Sequence record: PQ900155.1
DNA length: 48,021 bases
From: Escherichia phage vB_Eco_CWW26
Strand: one strand, 5' to 3'
The translations under genes were made by a program, and so were the position numbers. The notes under the pieces were generated by a model that worked only from the letters and a program-made list of their open reading frames with translations, was not told where the DNA came from and made no database searches. Below, one piece after another: positions 4,646 through 47,954 of the stretch (position 1 is the stretch's first letter; the number at the start of each line of letters is the position of its first letter).

Positions 4646-4674
4646 ACTCTACTCCATACTGACGAGGCCGTCAA
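4646..4674 (-). promoter_or_regulatory. Leftward promoter TTGACG-N17-TAGAGT embedded in palindrome CTGACG-AGGC-CGTCAA (4659..4674)
   Basis: The minus strand reads ttgacg gcctcgtcagtatggag tagagt. This is one member of the recurrent palindrome family. Confidence 0.6.
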
Positions 4675-6411: not shown

Positions 6412-6441
6412 AGTATACGTCATCCCTGACGAACTCGTCAA
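6412..6441 (-). promoter_or_regulatory. Leftward promoter TTGACG-N18-TATACT in palindrome CTGACG-AACT-CGTCAA (6426..6441)
   Basis: The minus strand reads ttgacg agttcgtcagggatgacg tatact. It lies between two leftward gene blocks. Confidence 0.6.
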
Positions 6442-7704: not shown

Positions 7705-7733
7705 ACTATGGCATACTCTGACGGACTCGTCAA
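7705..7733 (-). promoter_or_regulatory. Leftward promoter TTGACG-N17-CATAGT in palindrome CTGACG-GACT-CGTCAA (7718..7733)
   Basis: The minus strand reads ttgacg agtccgtcagagtatgc catagt. Confidence 0.6.
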
Positions 7734-9331: not shown

Positions 9332-10366
9332 ATGGATAAGTTAAACAGCGTTGTACTTGACGCACAGACTATCGCGGGTAACCCGTGGGTTAAACAGTAT
9401 CTGGATGGTCAGAATGCTATCAACGTTCCGACTGAATTCCGTGATGCTGACGGCGGTATCGCATTCTACATCTCTCAGCTGGCACAGATTGAGCAGACCA
9501 TCTATGCAACTCCGTATGCGGATATCACTTATCTGCAGGACATCCCGGTTGTATCCGGCATTCCTGAGTTTGCGAACCACTGGAACTACCGGTCATATGA
9601 TGGCGTCACGGTCGGGAAATTCATCGGCGCAAACGCTATGGACCTGCCTCGCGTTGCCCAGTCTGCAAAACTCCACACTGTACCGCTGAACTACGGCGGC
9701 ATCGAGTGTCACTACAGCATCGACGAGCTGCGCACCACTGCGTCTCAGAACATGCCGATTGACACCATGCAGCAGCAGCTGGCATATCGTGGCTATGAAG
9801 AACACAGTCAGAAAGTGGCGTACTTCGGCGACTCACAGCTGGGAATGTCCGGCCTCCTGAATCATCCCAACGTGACAGTTACATCAGCCACTGTCGACTA
9901 TAAAACCGCCACCGGTCAGCAGCTGTTCGACATGATCAACGACCCGTTGTTCAACATCATCAAACTGTCCAAAAACTTCCACCTGCCGAATACCATCCGC
10001 GTATTCCCGGACCTGTGGAAACGCATGAACAGCACGCTGATGACCGGGTATACTGACCGCACCGTTATGGAGCATTTCAAAATCAATAACTCCTTCACCC
10101 TGATGACCGGGCAGGAAATTGATATTCAGGTTCGTTACCAGCTGACCGCTGCGGAACTGGCTGCGGGCGGCGTGTCCAACAGTTCGAAAGACCGCGTGCT
10201 CATTTACGAGAAGAACGACCGCAACCTGGGTGTTGCCAAGCCGATTCCGTTCCGCATGCTGGCGCCGCAGAATAAAGGTCTGGCCGTAACTGTACCGGCA
10301 GAGTATAAGATTTCAGGCACTGAAATTCGCTACCCTCTGAGTGCAATCTACCTCGACATGCTGTAA
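9332..10366 (+). CDS. Major capsid protein
   Basis: 344 aa at the canonical position. It is followed by a strong intrinsic terminator, typical of the most highly expressed late gene. Confidence 0.7.
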   Translation: MDKLNSVVLDAQTIAGNPWVKQYLDGQNAINVPTEFRDADGGIAFYISQLAQIEQTIYATPYADITYLQDIPVVSGIPEFANHWNYRSYDGVTVGKFIGANAMDLPRVAQSAKLHTVPLNYGGIECHYSIDELRTTASQNMPIDTMQQQLAYRGYEEHSQKVAYFGDSQLGMSGLLNHPNVTVTSATVDYKTATGQQLFDMINDPLFNIIKLSKNFHLPNTIRVFPDLWKRMNSTLMTGYTDRTVMEHFKINNSFTLMTGQEIDIQVRYQLTAAELAAGGVSNSSKDRVLIYEKNDRNLGVAKPIPFRMLAPQNKGLAVTVPAEYKISGTEIRYPLSAIYLDML

Positions 10367-10388
10367 TACCTACCCTCAGCGACATCCC

Positions 10389-10415
10389 AAGCCCTCTTCG
10401 GAGGGCTTTTCTTTT
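10389..10415 (+). terminator. Rho-independent terminator after the capsid gene
   Basis: aagccctc-ttcg-gagggctt hairpin followed by ttcttttg. Confidence 0.75.
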
Positions 10416-10462
10416 GCCTCCTCTTTGGTTATAGTTAACACCATCTCAAGAGGAGCAATTCC

Positions 10463-12043
10463 ATGTTTATAGAAAAAGCAAAAGAAATACATAAAGGAAA
10501 ATATGACTATTCCAAAGTGGAATATGTAAACAACAAAACACCTGTGACGATAGTTTGCCCGGTGCATGGCGATTTCGTTCAACTACCACAGGGACACCTG
10601 AAATGCGAAATAGCGTGCCCAAAATGCAGAATCGACGACGTTTATGACCGAATGATACAACAGGCGCGAGCGATTCATGGTGACAAGTACTCATACGTCC
10701 GGGAATCGTTCATTTCCGTAGTCAAGAAAATGTCCATAGTGTGTCCGGTACACGGGGTGTATTACATGACACTGAATAACCACGTTCACGGGGGTGCGGA
10801 GTGTAAACCCTGCGCACTGGCAAAGCGTGGTGAGTTACACCGAAAGACACTTGATAGTTTTGTAGAAGACGCGAAAAAAGTTCATGGTGACAGGTACGAT
10901 TATTCCAAAGTTGTTTACGAGGGTAACAAAAAGAAAATAACCATCACTTGTGCAAAACATGGTGACTTTAAACAGGAACCATCTTCACATCTTTCAGGAA
11001 GAGGTTGTCCAAAATGCGGCCTTGAGTCAAGAGTAAGCAAAAGCATGAGTACTCTTGAAAGATTCATTCGCAAAAGCAGAGTCATACATGGTGATAAATA
11101 CGATTATTCCAAAGCGGTGTATAAAGGTAGTGACCAAAAATTAACCATAATTTGTCCGGTACATGGTGAATTTTCCCAATACGCAAACAACCACTCTACT
11201 CTTGGCCATCAATGCCCGACGTGTTCTAAAGCTGGTGTGTCCCGGGGTGAATTTGAAGTCTTCAACTTCGTCCGTTCCATCTGTCCCGATGCGGTACAAT
11301 CTGACCGTACAGTCATTGGACCGCTGGAACTTGATGTTGTAGTGCCGTCGCGCAATCTGGCAATTGAATTTAACGGCCTGTACTGGCACGATGAACGCAC
11401 GAAAAACAAGAAGTATCACATCACCAAGCGTCACCGCGTGGAAGCCGCAGGATACCGTCTGATAAGTATCCGTGAGGATGTCTGGAATGAGCGCCGCGAA
11501 CAGGTGGAAAGTATCATTCGCAACGCACTCGGCGTGACATCCGACAAAGTGTTTGCCCGCAAATGTAATATCGTGGAAGTTTCGACGTCTGAAGCGAAGG
11601 TATTTATGGAGAAACACCACGTGCAGGGTTTCCGGGGTGCGACCGTACATTATGGTCTGCAACACGATGATACATTAGTCGCCGTAATCAGTCTGACAAA
11701 CTGGCAGAAAAAGAATGAGTGGGAACTGGTACGATATGCAACCGCGTGTAATGTTCCGGGTGGACTGTCCCGCCTGTGGAAACATGCTACCACGGTTAAC
11801 AACATTGTCCGTGCCTATTCATACGTTGACCGGGATTTGTTCAGTGGTTCCGGTTATATTAATGCCGGTTTCACACTTTCAACCACGACAGTGGGGTTCA
11901 GGATTGTAAATGGTTGCACAACCGAATCGCGTGAGAAGTGGAACCGCGCACCAGATGAAATGACACAGACGCAATGGTACGAATCAGAAGGTGTATCACG
12001 CATCTACGATTCTGGACAGGACAAGCTGTTATGGGTAGAATGA
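10463..12043 (+). mobile_element. Free-standing homing-endonuclease-like gene: four tandem Zn-ribbon repeats, a PD-(D/E)XK/Vsr-like core and a Hef-like C-terminal domain (526 aa)
   Basis: Four repeats of the form HG(D)KYDYSKV-Y-x6-K-x-I-CP-HG-F-x10-CPxC span aa 3-56, 64-118, 131-185 and 198-254 (nt 10469..11224). These are followed by LELDVVVPSRNLAIEFNGLYWHDE (nuclease core) and ARKCNIVEV..FMEKHHVQG. The gene has its own RBS after the capsid terminator and interrupts the head gene order. Confidence 0.6.
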
Positions 12044-14824: not shown

Positions 14825-14853
14825 AGTATATCAATGATTGACGTACTCGTCAA
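14825..14853 (-). promoter_or_regulatory. Leftward promoter TTGACG-N17-TATACT in perfect palindrome TTGACG-TACT-CGTCAA (14838..14853)
   Basis: The minus strand reads ttgacg agtacgtcaatcattga tatact. The right half-site is the first 10 bp of repeat copy B. Confidence 0.65.
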
Positions 14854-18808: not shown

Positions 18809-18837
18809 ACTATAACCCACCTTGACGAGTCCGTCAA
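18809..18837 (-). promoter_or_regulatory. Leftward promoter TTGACG-N17-TATAGT in perfect palindrome TTGACG-AGTC-CGTCAA (18822..18837)
   Basis: The minus strand reads ttgacg gactcgtcaaggtgggt tatagt. Confidence 0.65.
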
Positions 18838-18897
18838 TAATTGATTGATGATTTCGTCAGGGGTACACTGTAACGACTAACAACCGGAGAAATAAGA

Positions 18898-23684: not shown

Positions 23685-23713
23685 ATAATTACATTGTTTG
23701 ACGTGATTGTCAA
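23685..23713 (-). promoter_or_regulatory. Leftward promoter TTGACA-N17-AATTAT (TGn extended -10) in palindrome TTGACG-TGAT-TGTCAA (23698..23713)
   Basis: The minus strand reads ttgaca atcacgtcaaacaatgt aattat. It is the only plausible start for the transcript ending at terminator 23165..23193. Confidence 0.5.
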
Positions 23714-35822: not shown

Positions 35823-35851
35823 ATACTACGTTGGTTTGACGAGTACGTCAA
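35823..35851 (-). promoter_or_regulatory. Leftward promoter TTGACG-N17-TAGTAT in perfect palindrome TTGACG-AGTA-CGTCAA (35836..35851)
   Basis: The minus strand reads ttgacg tactcgtcaaaccaacg tagtat. A 7-bp hairpin (35794..35812) follows in the SSB leader. Confidence 0.6.
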
Positions 35852-37315: not shown

Positions 37316-38335
37316 TCACTCCCCCAAATGCGCTTTAACACGTGCCACAAACGGACCGATTTTATCCGGGTGGGCGTTCAGTTCCTGCACCGACGACATA
37401 CCGTCCTGCGCCAGCAGCGTGTTCACCGTTGCCACATCAATCTTACCGTGACGCTCGGTCAGGAAGGTCATGAGGCGTGGGAAGTCCCAGTCGGTTACTT
37501 CCGGTACAGGCGGTGCAACAACTACCGGCGGCGGTACAGGTTTCTCGTATGCAGGAGCACCACCGTGACCATTTTCACACGTTACGCCGCTGGGCGATGA
37601 AAATTGAGGTTTCATGCACACTGAACACAGGTCACCAGTTTCAGGATGTGTCACTTCCGATTTCCAGTCATCAGTAGGAGGCGGCACAGGAAGTGGCGGA
37701 ATACCTGCAACGGTCTGCTCGGTTACCACGCCAGCGTCAGTGTGGAAGTCATCGGCCGGAGGTGTTACCGATGGTTCAGGAGTGACGCAAATATGTGGAG
37801 TTCCGTGATGGTCACAACCTTCATCAATGCACAATTCTTCACCGGATGGTGTCACCGGTACAGGTTCTTGAGGGAAACGTAATTCATCCTGTACTCGCTG
37901 AATAGTTGCCGCCCACTGCTCCTCATCCATGCCCTTCGGCTTACGACGCAGACGCCACGTACCGTCCGCATTAAGCGCCTTACTGGTGGAGTGGATACGC
38001 TCGTCCCACGGTGTACCGGTTGAGTCGGTAGTGGGTGGGTCGATATCCGGTTTAACTGGTACGCACAATTCAACCATTTCGCGAGTTACTTCAATACTTC
38101 TCCCGTCACGGGGAGCCAGCGACTCAACCTGTTGAGCAGTCGTGTCGACTTCCGGCTCATCCATCATTTGTGGCGCGGATTGTTGCAGTAATTCAGTGCT
38201 GATAACCAATGGGGTTACGGTCACATCGACTGGGTGACCATCTTTTTTGCTGGCAATTTCGATAAGCGCTTTACCGAATTGAAGCAATGCGATGGTATCG
38301 TCGTTCGGGATGGTTAAAGTGATAAGGTTGGTCAT
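37316..38335 (-). CDS. Pro/Cys-rich replication-module protein carrying a TPWDERIH motif (339 aa)
   Basis: This is track ORF 37316..38350 trimmed to ATG 38335 (ATGA overlap). It has two Cys/His clusters and the motif GTPWDERIHSTSKALNADGTWRLRRK, which is shared with the polymerase. Confidence 0.55.
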   Translation of the reverse strand: MTNLITLTIPNDDTIALLQFGKALIEIASKKDGHPVDVTVTPLVISTELLQQSAPQMMDEPEVDTTAQQVESLAPRDGRSIEVTREMVELCVPVKPDIDPPTTDSTGTPWDERIHSTSKALNADGTWRLRRKPKGMDEEQWAATIQRVQDELRFPQEPVPVTPSGEELCIDEGCDHHGTPHICVTPEPSVTPPADDFHTDAGVVTEQTVAGIPPLPVPPPTDDWKSEVTHPETGDLCSVCMKPQFSSPSGVTCENGHGGAPAYEKPVPPPVVVAPPVPEVTDWDFPRLMTFLTERHGKIDVATVNTLLAQDGMSSVQELNAHPDKIGPFVARVKAHLGE

Positions 38336-38654: not shown

Positions 38655-38683
38655 ACTCTATATCACCATGACGCAACCGTCAA
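38655..38683 (-). promoter_or_regulatory. Leftward promoter TTGACG-N17-TAGAGT in palindrome ATGACG-CAAC-CGTCAA (38668..38683)
   Basis: The minus strand reads ttgacg gttgcgtcatggtgata tagagt. It heads the long leftward replication operon. Confidence 0.6.
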
Positions 38684-38697
38684 CACTAATTTTAAAT

Positions 38698-38726
38698 TTG
38701 ACACGGGGTGGGTGGTGCGACATAAT
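38698..38726 (+). promoter_or_regulatory. Rightward promoter TTGACA-N17-CATAAT
   Basis: ttgaca cggggtgggtggtgcga cataat. It is divergent from 38655..38683. Confidence 0.6.
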
Positions 38727-38740
38727 GACGCCATCGTCAA
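38725..38740. promoter_or_regulatory. Palindrome ATGACG-CCAT-CGTCAA overlapping the -10/+1 of the rightward promoter (operator-like position)
   Basis: Same 16-bp family. Here it is not used as a -35 element but sits over the transcription start region. Confidence 0.45.
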
Positions 38741-38760
38741 TAGTTGAGAGGAAGTGAGAG

Positions 38761-39315: not shown

Positions 39316-40955
39316 TACCAACACTCCGACCCTATCAGGAAAAACTGGTCAAAGACACGTACCAGCAGTGGGACGCCGGTAAGCAGTTTGTGGCAATGGT
39401 GAGCGCTACCGGCTCCGGCAAGTCAATGACCCTGACCGCTATTGTCGCAAAAGAGCGTGACCGGGGTCAGTATGTGCTGGTGCTGGCGCATCGTCAGGAG
39501 CTTATAACACAGTTGAGCGACACGATGGGACGTATGGAAATCCGCCACCAGGTTATCGCTGCTAATAAAGTGGTACGCTTCGCCGCTAAACAGTCGATGG
39601 AAAACCACGGGGTTAATTATGTTGACCCGAATGCGCGGGTAATGGTTGCGTCCGTACAATCAATGCGTGAGGCTAAAATTGCTGACCTGGCAAAGCTGGG
39701 TAATAAGCTGACCGTTGTGCAGGATGAATTCCACCATGCCACGAAGAAATCGAAGACCTGGGGAGGTGTGCTGACACCCCTGCTTAACGCTGGTGCACGC
39801 GGACTTGGACCGACCGCCACACCTTGTCGTGCGGATGGACAGGGTTTATCACGCGAGACGGACGGTTACGCGGATGTGATTGTTGAAGGTCCGTCAATGC
39901 GCTGGCTTATCGACAACGGATATCTTAGTCAGTACAAAATTTACTGCCCGCCGACCGACCTACAACTGGATAACGTGGAAACCAGTAAAACCACGGGGGA
40001 CTATAAAGAGAAGGAACTCAAAGCGGAGATTGGGCGTTCACATATCGTCGGCGACATTGTGAGTCACTATCTCAAAATCTGCCCGGGTAAACGCGGCATC
40101 ACCTTTACCGTCGGCGTGGATACGGCAGAGGAAGTAGCGGAAGAATATCGTAAGCGTGGTGTACCAGCAATTGCATTGTCCGGGCGCAATGCAGATGAAG
40201 AACGTGTACAGGCTATCCGTGATTTGAAGTCTGGAAAGATTTTGCAAATTGTTAATGATTCGTTAATAGGGGAAGGAGTGGACATTCCCGCAGTGGAAGT
40301 AGTGTCTTTCGCCAGACCGACACAGAGTTATGCACTTTATGCACAAATGTTCGGTCGTGCGCTGCGTCCGTTCGAGGGAAAATCACACGCTATCATTATC
40401 GACGCAGTATCAAACGTCATGCGCCACGGTTTACCGGATGCACCGCGTGAGTGGAGTCTTGACCGTCGGGAGCGTCGCACGGGTAAAAGTGAACCATCGA
40501 CGGTGCGCGTGTGTACAGCTTGCGCGGCAGTGTATGAGCGGTTCCGTGACGCATGTCCGGACTGCGGTGAGCCTGTACCTAAACCGGCGCAACGTAGTGG
40601 TCCAGAGTTTGTAGACGGTGACCTTTACGAGCTTGACCCGGACGTACTGGCGCAGATGCGTAATGAGGTTGTGGGGGCACGTGAGACACCCGAGGCAATG
40701 CGTGACAGACTGACCGCACAACATGCGCCGCCTGCTGGAGTAATGGCTAACGTCAAACGTCAGAGAGAAAGGCTTGACGCGCTCGTCAAATTGGACCTAA
40801 AATTAGCGGAGTGGGCCGGGTATCGTCGTGCGGAAGGTCTGAGCGACAATGAAATATTTCGCAAGTTTTACCTGACGTATGGCGTGTCATGGCTGGAGGC
40901 GCAGGCGCTCAAATCGGCTGATGCGGATAAATTAAGAGAGAGGATTGGGTTATGA
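39312..40955 (+). CDS. SF2 (DEAD/DEAH, ResIII-type) DNA helicase with zinc ribbon
   Basis: 547 aa. Walker A ATGSGKS, Walker B DEFHH, helicase-C QMFGRALR, and CTAC...CPDC. Confidence 0.85.
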   Translation: MIPTLRPYQEKLVKDTYQQWDAGKQFVAMVSATGSGKSMTLTAIVAKERDRGQYVLVLAHRQELITQLSDTMGRMEIRHQVIAANKVVRFAAKQSMENHGVNYVDPNARVMVASVQSMREAKIADLAKLGNKLTVVQDEFHHATKKSKTWGGVLTPLLNAGARGLGPTATPCRADGQGLSRETDGYADVIVEGPSMRWLIDNGYLSQYKIYCPPTDLQLDNVETSKTTGDYKEKELKAEIGRSHIVGDIVSHYLKICPGKRGITFTVGVDTAEEVAEEYRKRGVPAIALSGRNADEERVQAIRDLKSGKILQIVNDSLIGEGVDIPAVEVVSFARPTQSYALYAQMFGRALRPFEGKSHAIIIDAVSNVMRHGLPDAPREWSLDRRERRTGKSEPSTVRVCTACAAVYERFRDACPDCGEPVPKPAQRSGPEFVDGDLYELDPDVLAQMRNEVVGARETPEAMRDRLTAQHAPPAGVMANVKRQRERLDALVKLDLKLAEWAGYRRAEGLSDNEIFRKFYLTYGVSWLEAQALKSADADKLRERIGL

Positions 40956-41721: not shown

Positions 41722-41996
41722 TGGCTGTTATTACACTTGAGCAAATTATCGAACTTCAATATCGAAGACACAACAACGTGTCGAATCAACAATTCAAACA
41801 ACTTAACGGAAAATATTCTTCCAGAGGTTTGAGAAATGCGCACCGTTACGCCGATATTGAGCGCCACAAATGTTGGCCACGCGGTAAAACTTATTACCGT
41901 CTCTACCGTCGCCAGATGAATCCACACATCAACTTTACTGTTTCACCGGGTCATCCGGACAGATATAAACACATGTCGTTGCGGATGTGGAGTTGA
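41718..41996 (+). CDS. Hypothetical basic protein (92 aa)
   Basis: Coupled ORF, Arg/Lys/His-rich. Confidence 0.45.
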   Translation: MMAVITLEQIIELQYRRHNNVSNQQFKQLNGKYSSRGLRNAHRYADIERHKCWPRGKTYYRLYRRQMNPHINFTVSPGHPDRYKHMSLRMWS

Positions 41997-42021
41997 CCAC
42001 TCCGTCAACCTGTGCCATACT
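41993..42021 (+). promoter_or_regulatory. Rightward promoter TTGACC-N17-CATACT in palindrome TTGACC-ACTC-CGTCAA (41993..42008)
   Basis: ttgacc actccgtcaacctgtgc catact. It lies directly upstream of the TetR-like gene. Confidence 0.55.
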
Positions 42022-42050
42022 GCAACAAATTACCTAATGGAACCGAACTC

Positions 42051-42329
42051 ATGAGCAAAGAGCATATTTTAGAAGTAGCTTACACGATGGCACAGCGCGA
42101 CGGCTTTGGTACTCTTACCCGCGATGGTGTCGCTGCCGAGGCTGGTGTGGCGATGGGAAGCGTTAACCATCACTGGGGTAAGATGTCCGCACTTCGTGAA
42201 GCAGTGATGCAACGGGCGGTAGAAGAAGAAAACCTCGAATTGATTGGGCAGGGGATGGCGCTGGGTGATAGCGTTGCCAAATCCGCCCCACTGGAGCTAC
42301 GCACACGCGCGTTGACAACCCTGCTTTAA
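42051..42329 (+). CDS. Mini TetR-family HTH protein (92 aa, DNA-binding domain only)
   Basis: This is track ORF 42012..42329, with ATG 42051 preferred. ILEVAYTMAQRDGFGTLTRDGVAAEAGVAMGSVNHHWGKMSALREAV aligns with the TetR N-terminal HTH pattern. No ligand-binding domain is present. Confidence 0.6.
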   Translation: MSKEHILEVAYTMAQRDGFGTLTRDGVAAEAGVAMGSVNHHWGKMSALREAVMQRAVEEENLELIGQGMALGDSVAKSAPLELRTRALTTLL

Positions 42330-42353: not shown

Positions 42354-44711
42354 ATGACACATGTGAATCCCCCGGTGCAGGGGGCCGATTCCCTGCACTT
42401 TATCGTCTGCAAAACAGTATCTTCACAGAAGAAGCCCGGGCGCACGGAGAAGATGCCATGTAATGCCGCTGGTGATGTAGTCAGTCTGCACGTTGCGGAC
42501 CGTATGACTCATGCTCAGGCGGTTGCGGCGGCTTCTGCACTGGGTGAGTCATATCGCCCCGCAGTCATTCTCACGGGTGACGGTCGTTTCTGCGTGGATA
42601 TCGACGGTGCACTACAGGATGATAACACCTGGTCACCGCTCGCGCTGGAGTTGTGCACCACTTTTGCCGGTTGTTACGTGGAAGTGAGTAACAGCGGTAA
42701 AGGCTTGCACATTTTTGGTTACAGTCCGTCCATCCCTGAGCATAGCTGTAAAAATATTTCGCTGCACATCGAACTGTACACGTCTGACCGTTTTATCTGT
42801 CTGGGAAGTGGTGCACGGGGTGACATGATGTTTAACGCGTCTGTACCACTCAACGCCACGGTTGCACGTTATTTCCCACAGACCGAGCAAGTTACGGCGA
42901 CGGAATGGACCACAACTCACGTCGAAGGCTCATGTCCGATTGAGGACGATGCGAAACTCATCGAAAAAGCCTGTTCGAGTAAAGGTGGTGTCGCGGCTGT
43001 TTTCGGTGGCAAAGCAACATTCAAAGACCTGTGGACGCGTAATGTTGAGGTACTGAGTGATGCGTATCCAGATGAGGACCGCGAGTATGACGGGTCGAGC
43101 GCCGATGCCGCACTGGCCCAACATTTATCGTTCTGGACCGGTGGTAACTGTGAACGTATCGAACGCCTGATGTGTCTGTCTGCGCTGGCACGTCCTAAAT
43201 GGGACAGTCACAAATCGTACATGCGACGTACCATTCTGGGTGCTTGCGCGCGTCAGACAACTTATTACAGTGTCGGCGCACCGATTGAACTGGTGACCCC
43301 TGCTCAGGTCATTGAGACGGGTGCACCAGTTATCCGCAGTGGGTATCAATTTATTGGTGGCTCGCAGCTTGTTGACCACTTCAAAGGTTGTGTATATGTG
43401 GCAGACAGTCACCGTATTCTCACCCCCAACGGTCAGATGCTGAAGTCTGAGCAGTTTAACGCGATGTACGGTGGCTATGTGTTTGCGCTGGATGATGGTA
43501 ATGAGAAGACCACTAAAAAGGCTTTCGAAGCGTTCACCGAGAACCAGTGTATCATGTTTCCGAAAGTTGACCGCTCAACGTTCCGTCCGGACCTGCCGCA
43601 GGGTGCTATCATCGAAGAAGATGGTCTGCGTCATGTCAACGCATACGTACCGGTGACAGTAGCAAGCGTCCCGGGCGATGTGACACCTTTCCTTACTCAT
43701 CTGGCCAAACTGTTACCCGTCGAGCGTGACCGCGACATCCTGCTGTCCTACATGGCAGCATGCGTACAGTACAAAGGGACCAAGTTCAAATGGGCACCAT
43801 TGTTGCAGGGCGTCGAGGGTAACGGTAAAACACTGTTCACACTGTGCGTAATGGAAGCGGTTGGTTCACGCTACAGCCACATGCCGCCAGCGCAGGAAAT
43901 CGGTGAGAAGTTCAACGCCTGGCTGTTCGATAAAATATTTATCGGCGTGGAAGATATTTACGTTCCGGAGCAGAAACTTGAACTGATTGAAACACTCAAG
44001 CCAATGATTACCGGTGAGTACCTCGCTAAGCGTGCGATGCAGCAGGACCAGGTAATGCACCGCCTGTGTGCTAACTTCATGTTTAACAGTAACCACAAGA
44101 ACGCCGTGCGCAAGACCGCTAATGACCGCCGGTTCGCTATTTTCTACACCGCGCAGCAGGAGCATATGGACATTGTGCGCGATGGCATGGGTGGCGACTA
44201 CTTCCCCAACCTGTACGACTGGCTCAAACGTGGCGGTGGATTTGCAGCCGTAACGCATTATCTGGAGAACTACGCCATTCCCGCACAACTTAACCCGGCG
44301 ACACATTGTCAGCGTGCCCCGGAAACAAGTAGCACCCATGAGGCTGTGACAGCATCGCTCGGTAGTGTCGAGCAGGAAATCATGGAAGCAATCGACGAGG
44401 GTCGCCAGGGCTTTGCGGGCGGTTGGGTGAGTAGTAAGGCACTGGATAATCTGTTACGCCAGATGCGCGCTGACCGCGCTGTACCGGTAGGTAAACGTCG
44501 TGACATGATGCGTCAACTGGGTTACGACTGGCACCCGGCGCTTAAAGACGGACGTGTGAACAATGTGATAATGATTGACGGTGGTAAGCCGCGGTTGTAC
44601 ATCAAGATTGGACACATTCACGCTAACCTCACAAATGCGGCGGACGTGGCGCGCCATTACGCAGCGGCACAGGGTGATACAAGTGCGTTAGCCTTTGCAG
44701 AAACTAAATAA
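42354..44711 (+). CDS. AEP primase-polymerase / SF3 helicase fusion (D5/P4-like replicative primase-helicase)
   Basis: 785 aa. Prim-pol motifs CVDIDG and SGKGLHIFG, Walker A GVEGNGKT, Walker B FIGVEDI. Confidence 0.8.
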   Translation: MTHVNPPVQGADSLHFIVCKTVSSQKKPGRTEKMPCNAAGDVVSLHVADRMTHAQAVAAASALGESYRPAVILTGDGRFCVDIDGALQDDNTWSPLALELCTTFAGCYVEVSNSGKGLHIFGYSPSIPEHSCKNISLHIELYTSDRFICLGSGARGDMMFNASVPLNATVARYFPQTEQVTATEWTTTHVEGSCPIEDDAKLIEKACSSKGGVAAVFGGKATFKDLWTRNVEVLSDAYPDEDREYDGSSADAALAQHLSFWTGGNCERIERLMCLSALARPKWDSHKSYMRRTILGACARQTTYYSVGAPIELVTPAQVIETGAPVIRSGYQFIGGSQLVDHFKGCVYVADSHRILTPNGQMLKSEQFNAMYGGYVFALDDGNEKTTKKAFEAFTENQCIMFPKVDRSTFRPDLPQGAIIEEDGLRHVNAYVPVTVASVPGDVTPFLTHLAKLLPVERDRDILLSYMAACVQYKGTKFKWAPLLQGVEGNGKTLFTLCVMEAVGSRYSHMPPAQEIGEKFNAWLFDKIFIGVEDIYVPEQKLELIETLKPMITGEYLAKRAMQQDQVMHRLCANFMFNSNHKNAVRKTANDRRFAIFYTAQQEHMDIVRDGMGGDYFPNLYDWLKRGGGFAAVTHYLENYAIPAQLNPATHCQRAPETSSTHEAVTASLGSVEQEIMEAIDEGRQGFAGGWVSSKALDNLLRQMRADRAVPVGKRRDMMRQLGYDWHPALKDGRVNNVIMIDGGKPRLYIKIGHIHANLTNAADVARHYAAAQGDTSALAFAETK

Positions 44712-44734
44712 GCCCTTCGGGGCTTTTTTTTTTT
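44709..44734 (+). terminator. Strong rho-independent terminator
   Basis: gccc-ttcg-gggc hairpin followed by T12 (44723..44734). Confidence 0.85.
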
Positions 44735-44744
44735 TGCAATTAGT

Positions 44745-44774
44745 GTTGACGAGTTCGTCAATGGGGAGTATAGT
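44745..44774 (+). promoter_or_regulatory. Rightward promoter TTGACG-N18-TATAGT in perfect palindrome TTGACG-AGTT-CGTCAA (44745..44760)
   Basis: ttgacg agttcgtcaaatggggag tatagt. It heads a block of small genes. Confidence 0.65.
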
Positions 44775-44804
44775 TAGTTCATCGACAACAGAGAGGTGAT
44801 GAAG

Positions 44805-45626: not shown

Positions 45627-45961
45627 TGACTGTACCAGTATTCATTGAAGTATCTGGAGGATACAACAGGCCACCAGTATTGTGCGAATTCGTGATAACC
45701 AAAATGGGGCGGAAATACGCATACGGGTACCGTACGGATATTCCCTATAAAATCGAAGAAAAAATCGACATTGATAACTGGTGGTACTCGCGTGAAGAGT
45801 ACGAACACGAAGTAGTCCGACGGAAATTAGCTGACGCAATAAAGAAGCGATTAAGCGAGTTCATGGGACTGGAATCAATAACGCGCGCATCTGCTTCTGA
45901 TTTACACGGATTAGTTTTGCAACTGAAGAAATGTGGGATAGAGGTGAAATTTGATGATTAG
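45626..45961 (+). CDS. Hypothetical protein (111 aa)
   Basis: Coupled ORF (TAATG). Confidence 0.5.
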   Translation: MTVPVFIEVSGGYNRPPVLCEFVITKMGRKYAYGYRTDIPYKIEEKIDIDNWWYSREEYEHEVVRRKLADAIKKRLSEFMGLESITRASASDLHGLVLQLKKCGIEVKFDD

Positions 45962-47096
45962 ATTGACAGACGAACAATTGATTACGGATGTCACATCTGG
46001 AATGAGTGGTCACGCTATTGCGAGAAAGTATGGTATGACCCCCGGCAACATTAACCGCCGCATCAAACGTCTCGGTGCGCGCGGTCTTGGTCACGGTGGT
46101 GATGTGTCTCGCTTTGTGCCGGACGGTTACAAGGTGAAAGGTACATCATCACTGGTGAAGGAGGATGGGACTGTAGCGCTACAATGGGTTAAAACCGACG
46201 TAGACGCCGAGCGTCAGCTGAAAATGATGCAGGAAGCGATTGTGGCACTTACAGAGTGCTTATCCCCACTAGAGGAAATCAATTTAATATCCCATGATGA
46301 GGATAGCACTCTCCTGAACATGTACACAGTAACAGATGCACACATTGGTATGTTGGCATGTGAAGAAGAGGGTGGAGACGATTACGACACCAATATCGCG
46401 GAACATCTCATATCATCGTGGTTCAAATCAGCGACAACATTGGCACCCAATGCAACAGAATGCCTCATTAACCTTCAGGGGGATTTCCTGCACTTCGACG
46501 GACTGAAGGCAGTTACACCAACATCCGGACACATTCTCGACTCTGATACGCGTTTCTTCAAAGTGGTACAGACTGCTATCCGCGTGATTAAACGAGCCGT
46601 GAATATGTGTCTGGAGAAGCATCGGAAAGTGACGCTGCTAATCGCCACTGGTAACCATGACCTCGCGTCCGCCGTGTGGTTGCGAGAGATGTTTAAAGAG
46701 GTGTATTGCGGTAATCCCCGCGTGACCATTGTAGACGAACAAAGTCCCTACTACGCAATCGAATTCGGTAAAGTGATGATTGGTGTCCATCACGGGCATT
46801 GTTCCAGAATGGAAAAGTTGGACGCAGTATTTGCCAGTAAGTTCCGGGAGATTTATGGCCGTACTAAGTTCGGCTACCTACACATGGGACACTATCATCA
46901 TCGGAAAGTGTCAGAGAGCAACATGTTCGTTACCGAGATGCACCAAACTCTGGCGGCCAAAGACGAGTATTCAAGTAACGGAGGTTACGACTCCGGAAGA
47001 AGCGCCACTGTCATAACATATCATCGAGACTATGGTGAGATTGGCAGAATATCAATTCCCGTAGAGATGATTAAGGACCAGTATGGACTGGAATAG
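45951..47096 (+). CDS. HTH domain fused to a calcineurin-like metallophosphoesterase
   Basis: 381 aa. N-terminal GMSGHAIARKYGMTPGNINRRIKRLG (HTH), then phosphoesterase motifs TDAHIG, GDFLHFDG, GNHD, HHGH and GHYHH. Confidence 0.65.
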   Translation: MMIRLTDEQLITDVTSGMSGHAIARKYGMTPGNINRRIKRLGARGLGHGGDVSRFVPDGYKVKGTSSLVKEDGTVALQWVKTDVDAERQLKMMQEAIVALTECLSPLEEINLISHDEDSTLLNMYTVTDAHIGMLACEEEGGDDYDTNIAEHLISSWFKSATTLAPNATECLINLQGDFLHFDGLKAVTPTSGHILDSDTRFFKVVQTAIRVIKRAVNMCLEKHRKVTLLIATGNHDLASAVWLREMFKEVYCGNPRVTIVDEQSPYYAIEFGKVMIGVHHGHCSRMEKLDAVFASKFREIYGRTKFGYLHMGHYHHRKVSESNMFVTEMHQTLAAKDEYSSNGGYDSGRSATVITYHRDYGEIGRISIPVEMIKDQYGLE

Positions 47097-47924: not shown

Positions 47925-47954
47925 ACTATAAAATAATAGAGAATTACTCGTCAA
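47925..47954 (-). promoter_or_regulatory. Leftward promoter TTGACG-N18-TATAGT (half palindrome only)
   Basis: The minus strand reads ttgacg agtaattctctattattt tatagt. Its -35 is formed by bases 5..10 of the 300-bp repeat unit. Confidence 0.6.

Follow-up and report, generated by a model that had tools for sequence, protein, structure and literature searches.

We analyzed the genome of Escherichia phage vB_Eco_CWW26 (sequence record PQ900155.1; all 48,021 nucleotides, hereafter the window) and found a 16-bp palindrome that recurs in fixed register with sigma70-like promoters. A small gene of this lytic phage, gp78, probably encodes the protein that reads it: a ligand-less, autoregulated, half-size TetR repressor that would act through the palindrome on the early/middle regulon of the phage. 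Our connection of the protein to the palindrome draws on sequence comparisons. Among the proteins shared by palindrome-bearing phages, gp78 is the only one with a recognizable helix-turn-helix (HTH), the site is kept at the gene's own promoter, and the recognition helix appears to co-vary with the motif. Gene numbers follow the annotation of Escherichia phage ZCEC13 (ON086804 / NC_071140; Caudoviricetes, Jedunavirus), and the 41-45 kb segment is 100% identical in the two phages.

A palindrome in sigma70-like promoters

The original prediction, made from the letters of the sequence, had pointed to a recurrent palindrome, TTGACG-N4-CGTCAA (consensus 16-mer TTGACGAGTTCGTCAA). With at most one mismatch, 12 such sites occur in the window compared with 0.20 expected, and none of 100 shuffled sequences reached 12. 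The exact core, TGACG-N4-CGTCA, is present in 10 copies. The centers of the two half-sites are 9 bp apart, and the 4 bp between the half-sites vary from site to site.

Promoters were found by a hexamer scan, and those in the 38.5-45 kb region were confirmed with a promoter tool; they are predicted from their match to the consensus. The earlier impression that the palindrome recurs at promoters is supported (Table 1). In 11 of the 12 palindromes, one TTGAC(G) arm is the -35 hexamer of a sigma70-like promoter and the palindrome also takes up the first 10 bp of the spacer, while the twelfth covers a -10/+1 region. The eleven promoters match the sigma70 consensus at 9-10 of 12 hexamer positions and have 17-18-bp spacers. 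Eight of them point leftward. Six of these serve small minus-strand cassettes lying among the plus-strand structural genes, which they interrupt, and the other two serve the leftward replication operons. The three rightward promoters are those at 40774, 41993 and 44746. The promoter at 38698, which is overlapped by the twelfth site, is the strongest rightward one and the main rightward promoter for replication, and is located in the divergent control region between the two replication operons. Upstream of the plus-strand structural genes, the hexamer scan revealed no comparable sigma70-like promoters. The palindrome-bearing set therefore looks like an early/middle regulon.

We know of no role in sigma70 recognition for the spacer-proximal arm of the palindrome (CGTCA, about -25 to -21), and its presence calls for a binder that is itself symmetric. 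Together with the variable 4-bp center, this arm gives the palindromes the signature of an operator for a repressor that sits over the promoter.

It is conceivable that the palindromes have no dedicated binder and are instead -35 hexamers placed face to face in bidirectional promoters, RNA or DNA hairpins, or conserved recombination junctions at which cassettes are shuffled, with gp78 being unrelated to them. This is the least probable of the explanations that we considered. The stem-loops do fold at -7 to -9 kcal/mol, and it is precisely at the palindrome that homology between Jedunaviruses breaks off 5′ of gp78. However, plausible -10 elements on both sides are found at one site only (23698), and at 38725 the palindrome does not provide a -35 element. 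The sites are positioned upstream of their own transcription starts. They have no U-tracts, and with folding energies of -7 to -9.9 kcal/mol and mostly weak z-scores (-0.5 to -3.2), they do not have the properties of terminators or structured RNAs. At 41993, the minimum free energy structure leaves the palindrome unused. Moreover, half-sites that are kept around a varying 4-bp center are typical of recognition by a protein.

As originally noted, the gp78 promoter carries its own copy of the palindrome, TTGACCACTCCGTCAA. In an alignment of six Jedunaviruses and Pantoea phage AAM22 at this promoter, the half-sites are invariant and the center varies. Within Jedunavirus, the homology 5′ of gp78 extends exactly to the left edge of the palindrome, and the half-sites, -10 element and leader are invariant. 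The TGACC half-site, which makes this copy asymmetric, is kept in Jedunavirus and in several other lineages, and may adjust the autoregulatory set-point. At 41931-42008 and in the corresponding regions of relatives (loci L012-L016 and L002), one and the same gp78 promoter is preceded by three different, unrelated sets of genes. Given these joins and the point at which homology stops, palindromic promoters look like recombination junctions for the exchange of cassettes. In this they resemble the promoter-stem-loop recombination junctions described for T4-type phages.

gp78 resembles the N-terminal half of TetR regulators

In both GenBank and RefSeq, gp78 is already labeled as a “TetR family transcriptional regulator”. 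Orthologs of 92 amino acids (aa) with 84-99% identity occur in ~65 Klebsiella Jedunavirus records. An alternative start codon, GTG at 42012, is upstream of the predicted transcription start, and homologs of gp78 begin at the same M-S/T-K-E. For both reasons, we take the 92-aa protein to be the real product.

The HTH of this protein had been proposed from an alignment by eye with the N-terminal region of TetR-family repressors, and both profile and structure searches now support it. Residues 6-52 match the full 47-position Pfam profile TetR_N (PF00440) with 31.3 bits, against a cut-off of 24. In a phmmer search of PDB sequences, ~40 solved TetR regulators match gp78, all of them via the N-terminal 50-70 residues. 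We built an AlphaFold2 model on a 38-sequence alignment of diverse homologs and set aside a single-sequence model (predicted local distance difference test, pLDDT, of 68.6). The alignment-based model has seven short helices, a pLDDT of 97.3 and a predicted template modeling score (pTM) of 0.88. When this model is laid over full-length TetR regulators, 83-87 of the 92 residues (helices 1 to ~7) coincide with their N-terminal half at 2.0-2.5 A. The structural matches are proteins of 171-420 residues that are aligned only in their N-terminal half, and no protein of the size of gp78 is among the solved structures matched by the model.

The model contains the fold of the TetR DNA-binding domain plus helix 4. 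A C-terminal effector/dimerization domain, which would imply about 9-10 helices and about 190-220 aa, is absent from a protein with 92 aa and 7 helices. Canonical TetR regulators have the rest of their ligand pocket, and the helices through which they dimerize, in the C-terminal half. Because this half is missing, neither effector control nor the canonical dimer interface is expected for gp78. Thus, the original prediction of an HTH-only protein that lacks the ligand-binding and dimerization domain was right about the C-terminal half, but it understated what is left. Judging by the model, gp78 is the N-terminal half of a TetR regulator, comprising the HTH together with helix 4 and the initial helices of the C-terminal domain, and is more than an HTH alone. 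Since it has the HTH, the fold and a candidate operator of its own, but not the two-domain architecture, the most fitting description of gp78 is that of a half-size protein derived from TetR, and not of a canonical TetR-family regulator.

The word “truncated” in the original prediction, if understood as a remnant, does not fit the family to which gp78 belongs. This family is PHROG 8723 (E = 1.6e-38, 133.8 bits, residues 1-91), which is annotated as “unknown function”. An exhaustive HMMER search of 1.84 billion cluster representatives yielded 1,427 relatives, 205 of them with E < 1e-10. These relatives fall into two length classes, of about 90-110 aa and about 165-170 aa. The short homologs can be aligned over their whole length, with conservation in the C-terminal 40 residues as well (LxIIAQGLAxG...AP..LK..A). 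This pattern indicates that gp78 is no decayed gene, but belongs to a conserved family in which the C-terminal module, too, has been maintained. In the longer homologs (~167 aa), an additional, diverged TetR-type HTH that does not have the C-terminal module precedes a complete mini-TetR unit. The two-HTH class includes Scuro_24 (locus L003, 21424-21924), proteins P0270-P0300, and loci L010 and L011, and its genes occupy the same place beside the primase gene. TGACG-N4-CGTCA is present with the two-HTH gene in L010, and is absent in L011, L079 and L096.

In every annotated context that we examined, the gp78-family gene lies next to the primase gene or a short distance from it, inside a helicase-nuclease-primase module. 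The module with this gene is also found in phages whose structural genes are unrelated, such as Scuro. This location, the movement of gp78 with the module, and the fact that two sites (38668 and 38725) flank divergent replication promoters could mean that gp78 is a replication accessory protein. It would then function in origin recognition or primase loading and mark palindromes, especially these two, for the neighboring primase-helicase, with any effects on transcription being secondary. We consider such a role very unlikely. The sites are spread over ~40 kb without the clustering seen in iterons, at 11 promoters they keep a fixed register with the -35 hexamer, with many of these promoters in the structural region, and TetR-family proteins are known as regulators of transcription.

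The palindrome and gp78 in related phages

We used tblastn to compare all 87 ZCEC13 coding sequences that fall inside the linear record with Pantoea phage AAM22, Vibrio phage 138 and Acinetobacter phage Scuro. The gp78 homologs of these phages have ~50%, ~36% and ~42% identity, respectively; that of Scuro is of the two-HTH form, and the structural genes of this phage are unrelated. Common to all four phages are gp65 (a Gp2.5-like single-stranded DNA-binding protein, SSB), gp66 (a DUF2800 PD-(D/E)XK nuclease), gp68, gp74 (helicase), gp76 (nuclease), gp78 and gp79 (primase). The tail/baseplate proteins gp48 and gp53 have short partial matches in the other three. Only gp78 among the proteins common to these four palindrome-bearing phages has a recognizable HTH or sequence-specific DNA-binding fold.

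We considered gp86 (45954-47096), whose annotation as a “winged helix-turn-helix domain-containing protein” would make it an alternative regulator, and rejected it. It belongs to PHROG 704, a DNA repair exonuclease (E = 1e-140), its score against Pfam HTH_24 (19.5 bits) is under the threshold of 21.9, and it is absent from AAM22, Scuro and phage 138. Its label is probably a misannotation.

In the related phages, the palindrome or a close variant of it accompanies the replication module. AAM22 has 13 palindrome sites (0.16 expected), and Vibrio phage 138 has 11 copies of TTGAC-N6-GTCAA (1.7 expected). In Scuro, TGACA-N4-TGTCA occurs six times (0.83 expected); all copies are exact, and all are inside the shared replication module. 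Edwardsiella phage PEi21, with a gp78 homolog of ~31% identity, has 13 TGAC-N6-GTCA sites. We also pooled 91 loci (34 clusters at 70% identity, 1.52 Mb in total), consisting of 80 viral metagenome loci with the conserved IAQGLAxG stretch, reference genomes and three more metagenome contigs. TGAC-N6-GTCA occurs 265 times in this set, a 12-fold excess over the 21 sites expected from base composition.

The TetR gene has a palindrome in its own promoter in ZCEC13, AAM22 (TTGACCATACCGTCAA), phage 138, PEi21, Scuro and L010. In 30 of 83 loci (36%), an exact site is located no more than 220 bp upstream of the start of the TetR domain, mostly 54-63 bp from it, compared with 3.2% of background windows. 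The autoregulatory layout that was proposed from a single promoter is thus conserved far beyond phage ZCEC13. By its position, the site at gp78 has the arrangement of an own-promoter operator, which is consistent with autoregulation.

There is also a suggestive relationship between the recognition helix and the motif. Where position 35 of the recognition helix is Pro (SPA, TPP and TPQ types, and some others), there are 0.6 sites per 10 kb, against 2.0 in the other clusters (Mann-Whitney p = 0.03 at the cluster level). The Pro35 (SPALVSHW) contigs L062, L063 (9571, 17364, 19988), L064 and L074 do not have the TGAC motif and contain CGGCA-N4-TGCCG 2-3 times each. This motif has the same 5-N4-5 geometry; we saw no clear association with promoters for it in the Pro35 clade. 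In the viral contig L078, the mini-TetR has a diverged recognition helix (STALVTWYF), and the region at 9366-11845 contains five copies of TATACC-N8-GGTATA (20 bp) over the spacer and -10 element of TTGACC-17-TATACT promoters of small leftward genes. This second palindrome may represent an alternative operator specificity. GACG-N4-CGTC and CGAC-N6-GTCG in the GC-rich phages SFCi1, 367.14 and R9Y1 are scattered and their flanking bases are not conserved; we therefore rejected them as regulatory motifs.

RutR and other known regulators

E. coli RutR, a full-length TetR-family regulator, binds a 16-bp palindrome, TTGACCAnnTGGTCAA, via two successive major grooves (PMC2475637, PMC2952853). The phage palindrome has the same outer pentamers, spacing and length, and shares 10 of the 14 specified positions of this RUT box, which bears out the original argument that its size and symmetry fit the TetR family. 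In its left half, the site at the gp78 promoter (TTGACCA) matches a RutR half-site perfectly. Given the shared pentamers and length, a TetR-type reader is very plausible, and RutR itself must be regarded as a competing candidate. However, although the bases at +-5 and +-4 and the outer bases agree with a RUT box, +-3 is G/C in 10 of the 12 phage sites where RutR prefers C/G, and this change cuts the affinity of RutR 12.7-fold (PMC2952853 Table 1). RutR also differs from gp78 in being full length and responsive to uracil, and is not among the PDB sequence matches of gp78 with E values up to 1.

More generally, the palindrome could be the real operator of another protein, namely RutR, gp68 or the product of a small open reading frame (ORF), and gp78 could have its target elsewhere, for example at RutR-type boxes of the host. 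We think this unlikely. The gp68 protein (37316-38335, minus strand; 339 aa, PHROG 11133) is a core protein of the replication module to which no function can be assigned, and it occurs in all four phages, which would make it eligible. However, the conservation is in part partial, with a match of only ~50 aa in Scuro, and gp68 has no Pfam or PDB sequence match and no HTH signature. As to a host protein, the motif is present in Vibrio, Acinetobacter, Edwardsiella and Pantoea phages, and in many metagenomic viral contigs. Its persistence in phages of such distant hosts favors a factor that is carried by the phages. The fixed distance at which the site is found upstream of the TetR gene across the family likewise argues against an unrelated binder. 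Sites of the host CRP/FNR type were also rejected on their spacing; their half-sites (TGA-N6-TCA, TTGA-N6-TCAA) have a gap 2 bp shorter than the TTGA-N8-TCAA found here.

Like TetR, QacR, AmvR and EilR, gp78 has an N-terminal three-helix HTH, a candidate operator in its own promoter, and an expected target that is a palindrome of ~16 bp over a promoter. Unlike these proteins (about 190-220 aa), it has only 92 aa and lacks the C-terminal half. The proposed regulon, a dozen phage promoters, also differs from the one adjacent efflux or catabolic operon that canonical TetR regulators control. In function, an analogy is offered by the small dimeric repressors of early promoters in lytic phages, for example p4 of phage phi29, which bind inverted repeats over early sigma-A/sigma70 promoters and shut them down in the lytic cycle. 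The analogy is purely functional, as the folds are unrelated, and p4 also activates a late promoter, whereas no such role is indicated for gp78. D29 Gp36 is unrelated to gp78. Phages PLPE, CP-T1 and 138 were previously noted to carry “tetR-like cellular regulators” that were possibly co-opted by the phage, in a paper with no analysis of operators or promoters (PMC3391216). In the searchable literature on Jedunavirus (including JD001 and ZCEC13), AAM22 and half-size or stand-alone TetR proteins, we found no earlier account of the operator or regulon.

A proposed regulatory circuit

If gp78 is the repressor, the circuit might function as follows. Host RNA polymerase should read the eleven near-consensus sigma70 promoters unaided. 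One of them, itself palindromic, drives the predicted operon of gp78 and the primase, which ends at a strong terminator (44710). As gp78 accumulates, two HTH domains would occupy each palindrome in adjacent major grooves. This could be achieved either by a gp78 dimer, formed via the conserved hydrophobic C-terminal helices, or by two monomers that bind cooperatively. Indirect hints of such pairing are the symmetry of the sites, with their half-site centers 9 bp apart, and the ~167-aa two-HTH variants. Occupancy would block RNA polymerase at the -35 element and spacer, or at -10/+1 in the case of the 38725 site, such that gp78 would repress rather than activate. Rising levels of gp78 would then lower the output of the entire early/middle regulon and, with it, that of the gp78 operon, which amounts to negative autoregulation.

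The replication operons would be damped in this way, and the minus-strand cassettes would be silenced. These cassettes run antisense to the plus-strand structural genes, and their transcription would collide with late plus-strand transcription of these genes. The inputs to gp78 would be its own concentration and the number of operator copies, which grows with replication. Because the protein has no effector pocket, its activity would be determined only by the ratio of concentration to operator copies.

Several points weigh against this interpretation. Although the palindrome is symmetric, gp78 does not have the C-terminal half that carries the canonical dimerization helices. Co-occurrence with the palindrome does not separate gp78 from other proteins of the replication module, such as gp68 and small ORFs. 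The statistic for co-variation is weak (p = 0.03 with 34 clusters), and there are exceptions to the trend: two SMG-type loci have no sites, and two Pro35 loci have three. Since TTGAC is itself the -35 consensus, part of the enrichment of the motif reflects the density of promoters. Finally, negative autoregulation alone leads to steady-state damping, and not to a clean switch from early to late expression. Overall, the observation behind the original prediction is confirmed, while its interpretation is partly supported: the fold, the missing half, the site and the autoregulatory layout agree with it, and gp78 is a candidate for the binder of the palindrome and for a master regulator.

A wider reading of the data is also conceivable, but less likely. 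Under this reading, a widespread family of half-size TetR proteins without the ligand/dimer half would function as global repressors that respond to concentration only and in this way sense the copy number of their operators. In practically all sigma70 promoters of the early/middle class, an operator would occupy the -35 element and spacer. The repressor would move with its operators and the replication genes, as one module, between phages of unrelated morphotypes, and the operator promoters would double as recombination junctions for cassettes.

Additional sites and neighboring features

The palindromic promoter inside the 3′ end of the helicase gene (40774-40803) is also present in AAM22 (38687-38702, ~180 bp before the stop codon) and in Vibrio phage 138 (8424-8439, 12 bp before it). 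Since this intragenic promoter is kept in position in three phages, the helicase coding sequence appears to accommodate a regulatory site. At 47925-47954 on the minus strand, upstream of gp88/gp87, is the only strong sigma70-like promoter without a second half-site (TTGACG-18-TATAGT). It may be unregulated or immediate-early.

Additional, less typical sites are present. A TGAC-N6-GTCA site at 309-324 (ATGACGGTACAGTCAT) is ~40 bp upstream of the small terminase gene, within the doubtful 40-aa ORF gp03. A degenerate palindrome with two mismatches at 18845-18860 (TTGATGATTTCGTCAG) falls within the spacer of TTGATT-17-TACACT, which may be a rightward promoter and precedes the gene for the tail assembly chaperone. 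This site is 8 bp from the 18822 site, and could be a second operator in that divergent region. The tiny ORFs gp70 (29 aa) and gp80 (21 aa), and the extended starts of gp30 (a TTG in the palindrome) and gp20, overlap palindromic promoters (38668-38757, 44734-44799, 14853 and 7687). They are probably over-annotations.

Table 1. Coordinates of gp78, its predicted operon and the palindrome sites in the window
Feature	Position	Strand	Details
gp78, half-size TetR-family protein (PHROG 8723)	42051..42329	+	ATG start, stop 42327-42329, 92 aa
Palindrome TTGACCACTCCGTCAA, candidate operator at gp78 promoter	41993..42008	.	Left half TGACC instead of TGACG; based on sequence and half-site conservation
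Sigma70-like promoter of TetR-primase operon	41993..42021	+	-35 TTGACC 41993-41998, 17-bp spacer, TG-extended -10 CATACT 42016-42021
gp79, primase-polymerase/helicase (NrS-1-like HBD + DUF5906)	42354..44711	+	Predicted to be co-transcribed 3′ of gp78
Intrinsic terminator, end of TetR-primase operon	44710..44735	+	AAGCCCTTCGGGGCTT followed by T10
Palindrome, -35 and spacer	4659..4674	-	TTGACG-17-TAGAGT, for gp09-07 cassette
Palindrome, -35 and spacer	6426..6441	-	TTGACG-18-TATACT, for gp15-11
Palindrome, -35 and spacer	7718..7733	-	TTGACG-17-CATAGT, for gp19-16
Palindrome, -35 and spacer	14838..14853	-	TTGACG-17-TATACT, for gp30-28 (including dUTPase)
Palindrome, -35 and spacer	18822..18837	-	TTGACG-17-TATAGT, for gp39-38
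Degenerate palindrome TTGACGTGATTGTCAA, -35 and spacer	23698..23713	-	TTGACA-17-AATTAT
Palindrome, -35 and spacer	35836..35851	-	TTGACG-17-TAGTAT, for gp65-60 (SSB, exonuclease, DNA polymerase)
Palindrome, -35 and spacer	38668..38683	-	TTGACG-17-TAGAGT, leftward promoter of divergent replication control region
Palindrome, -10/+1 of rightward promoter	38725..38740	+	TTGACA-17-CATAAT (38698-38726); only site that is not a -35 hexamer
Palindrome, -35 and spacer of intragenic promoter	40774..40789	+	TTGACG-18-TAAAAT, ~180 bp before end of helicase gene
Palindrome, -35 and spacer	44746..44761	+	TTGACG-17-TATAGT, just 3′ of primase terminator

Implications

Jedunaviruses are frequent candidates for phage therapy of Klebsiella and E. 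coli, and, to our knowledge, their transcription programme has not been described. The annotation of the gp78 gene was already known; what appears to be new is the regulon with its operator, the conservation across the family and the function proposed here. Should gp78 bind these sites, control of the replication operons and of all minus-strand cassettes in the late structural operons would be accounted for by a single 92-aa protein and a single 16-bp operator. PHROG 8723 would then have an assigned function in hundreds of lineages of phages, and there would be an example of a TetR DNA-binding half that works without the canonical dimer/ligand domain. The circuit would have an unusually minimal TetR architecture and, conceptually, would extend the known logic of repressors and operators. 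It would also provide a very small orthogonal repressor/operator pair within a consensus sigma70 promoter, which may be useful in synthetic biology.

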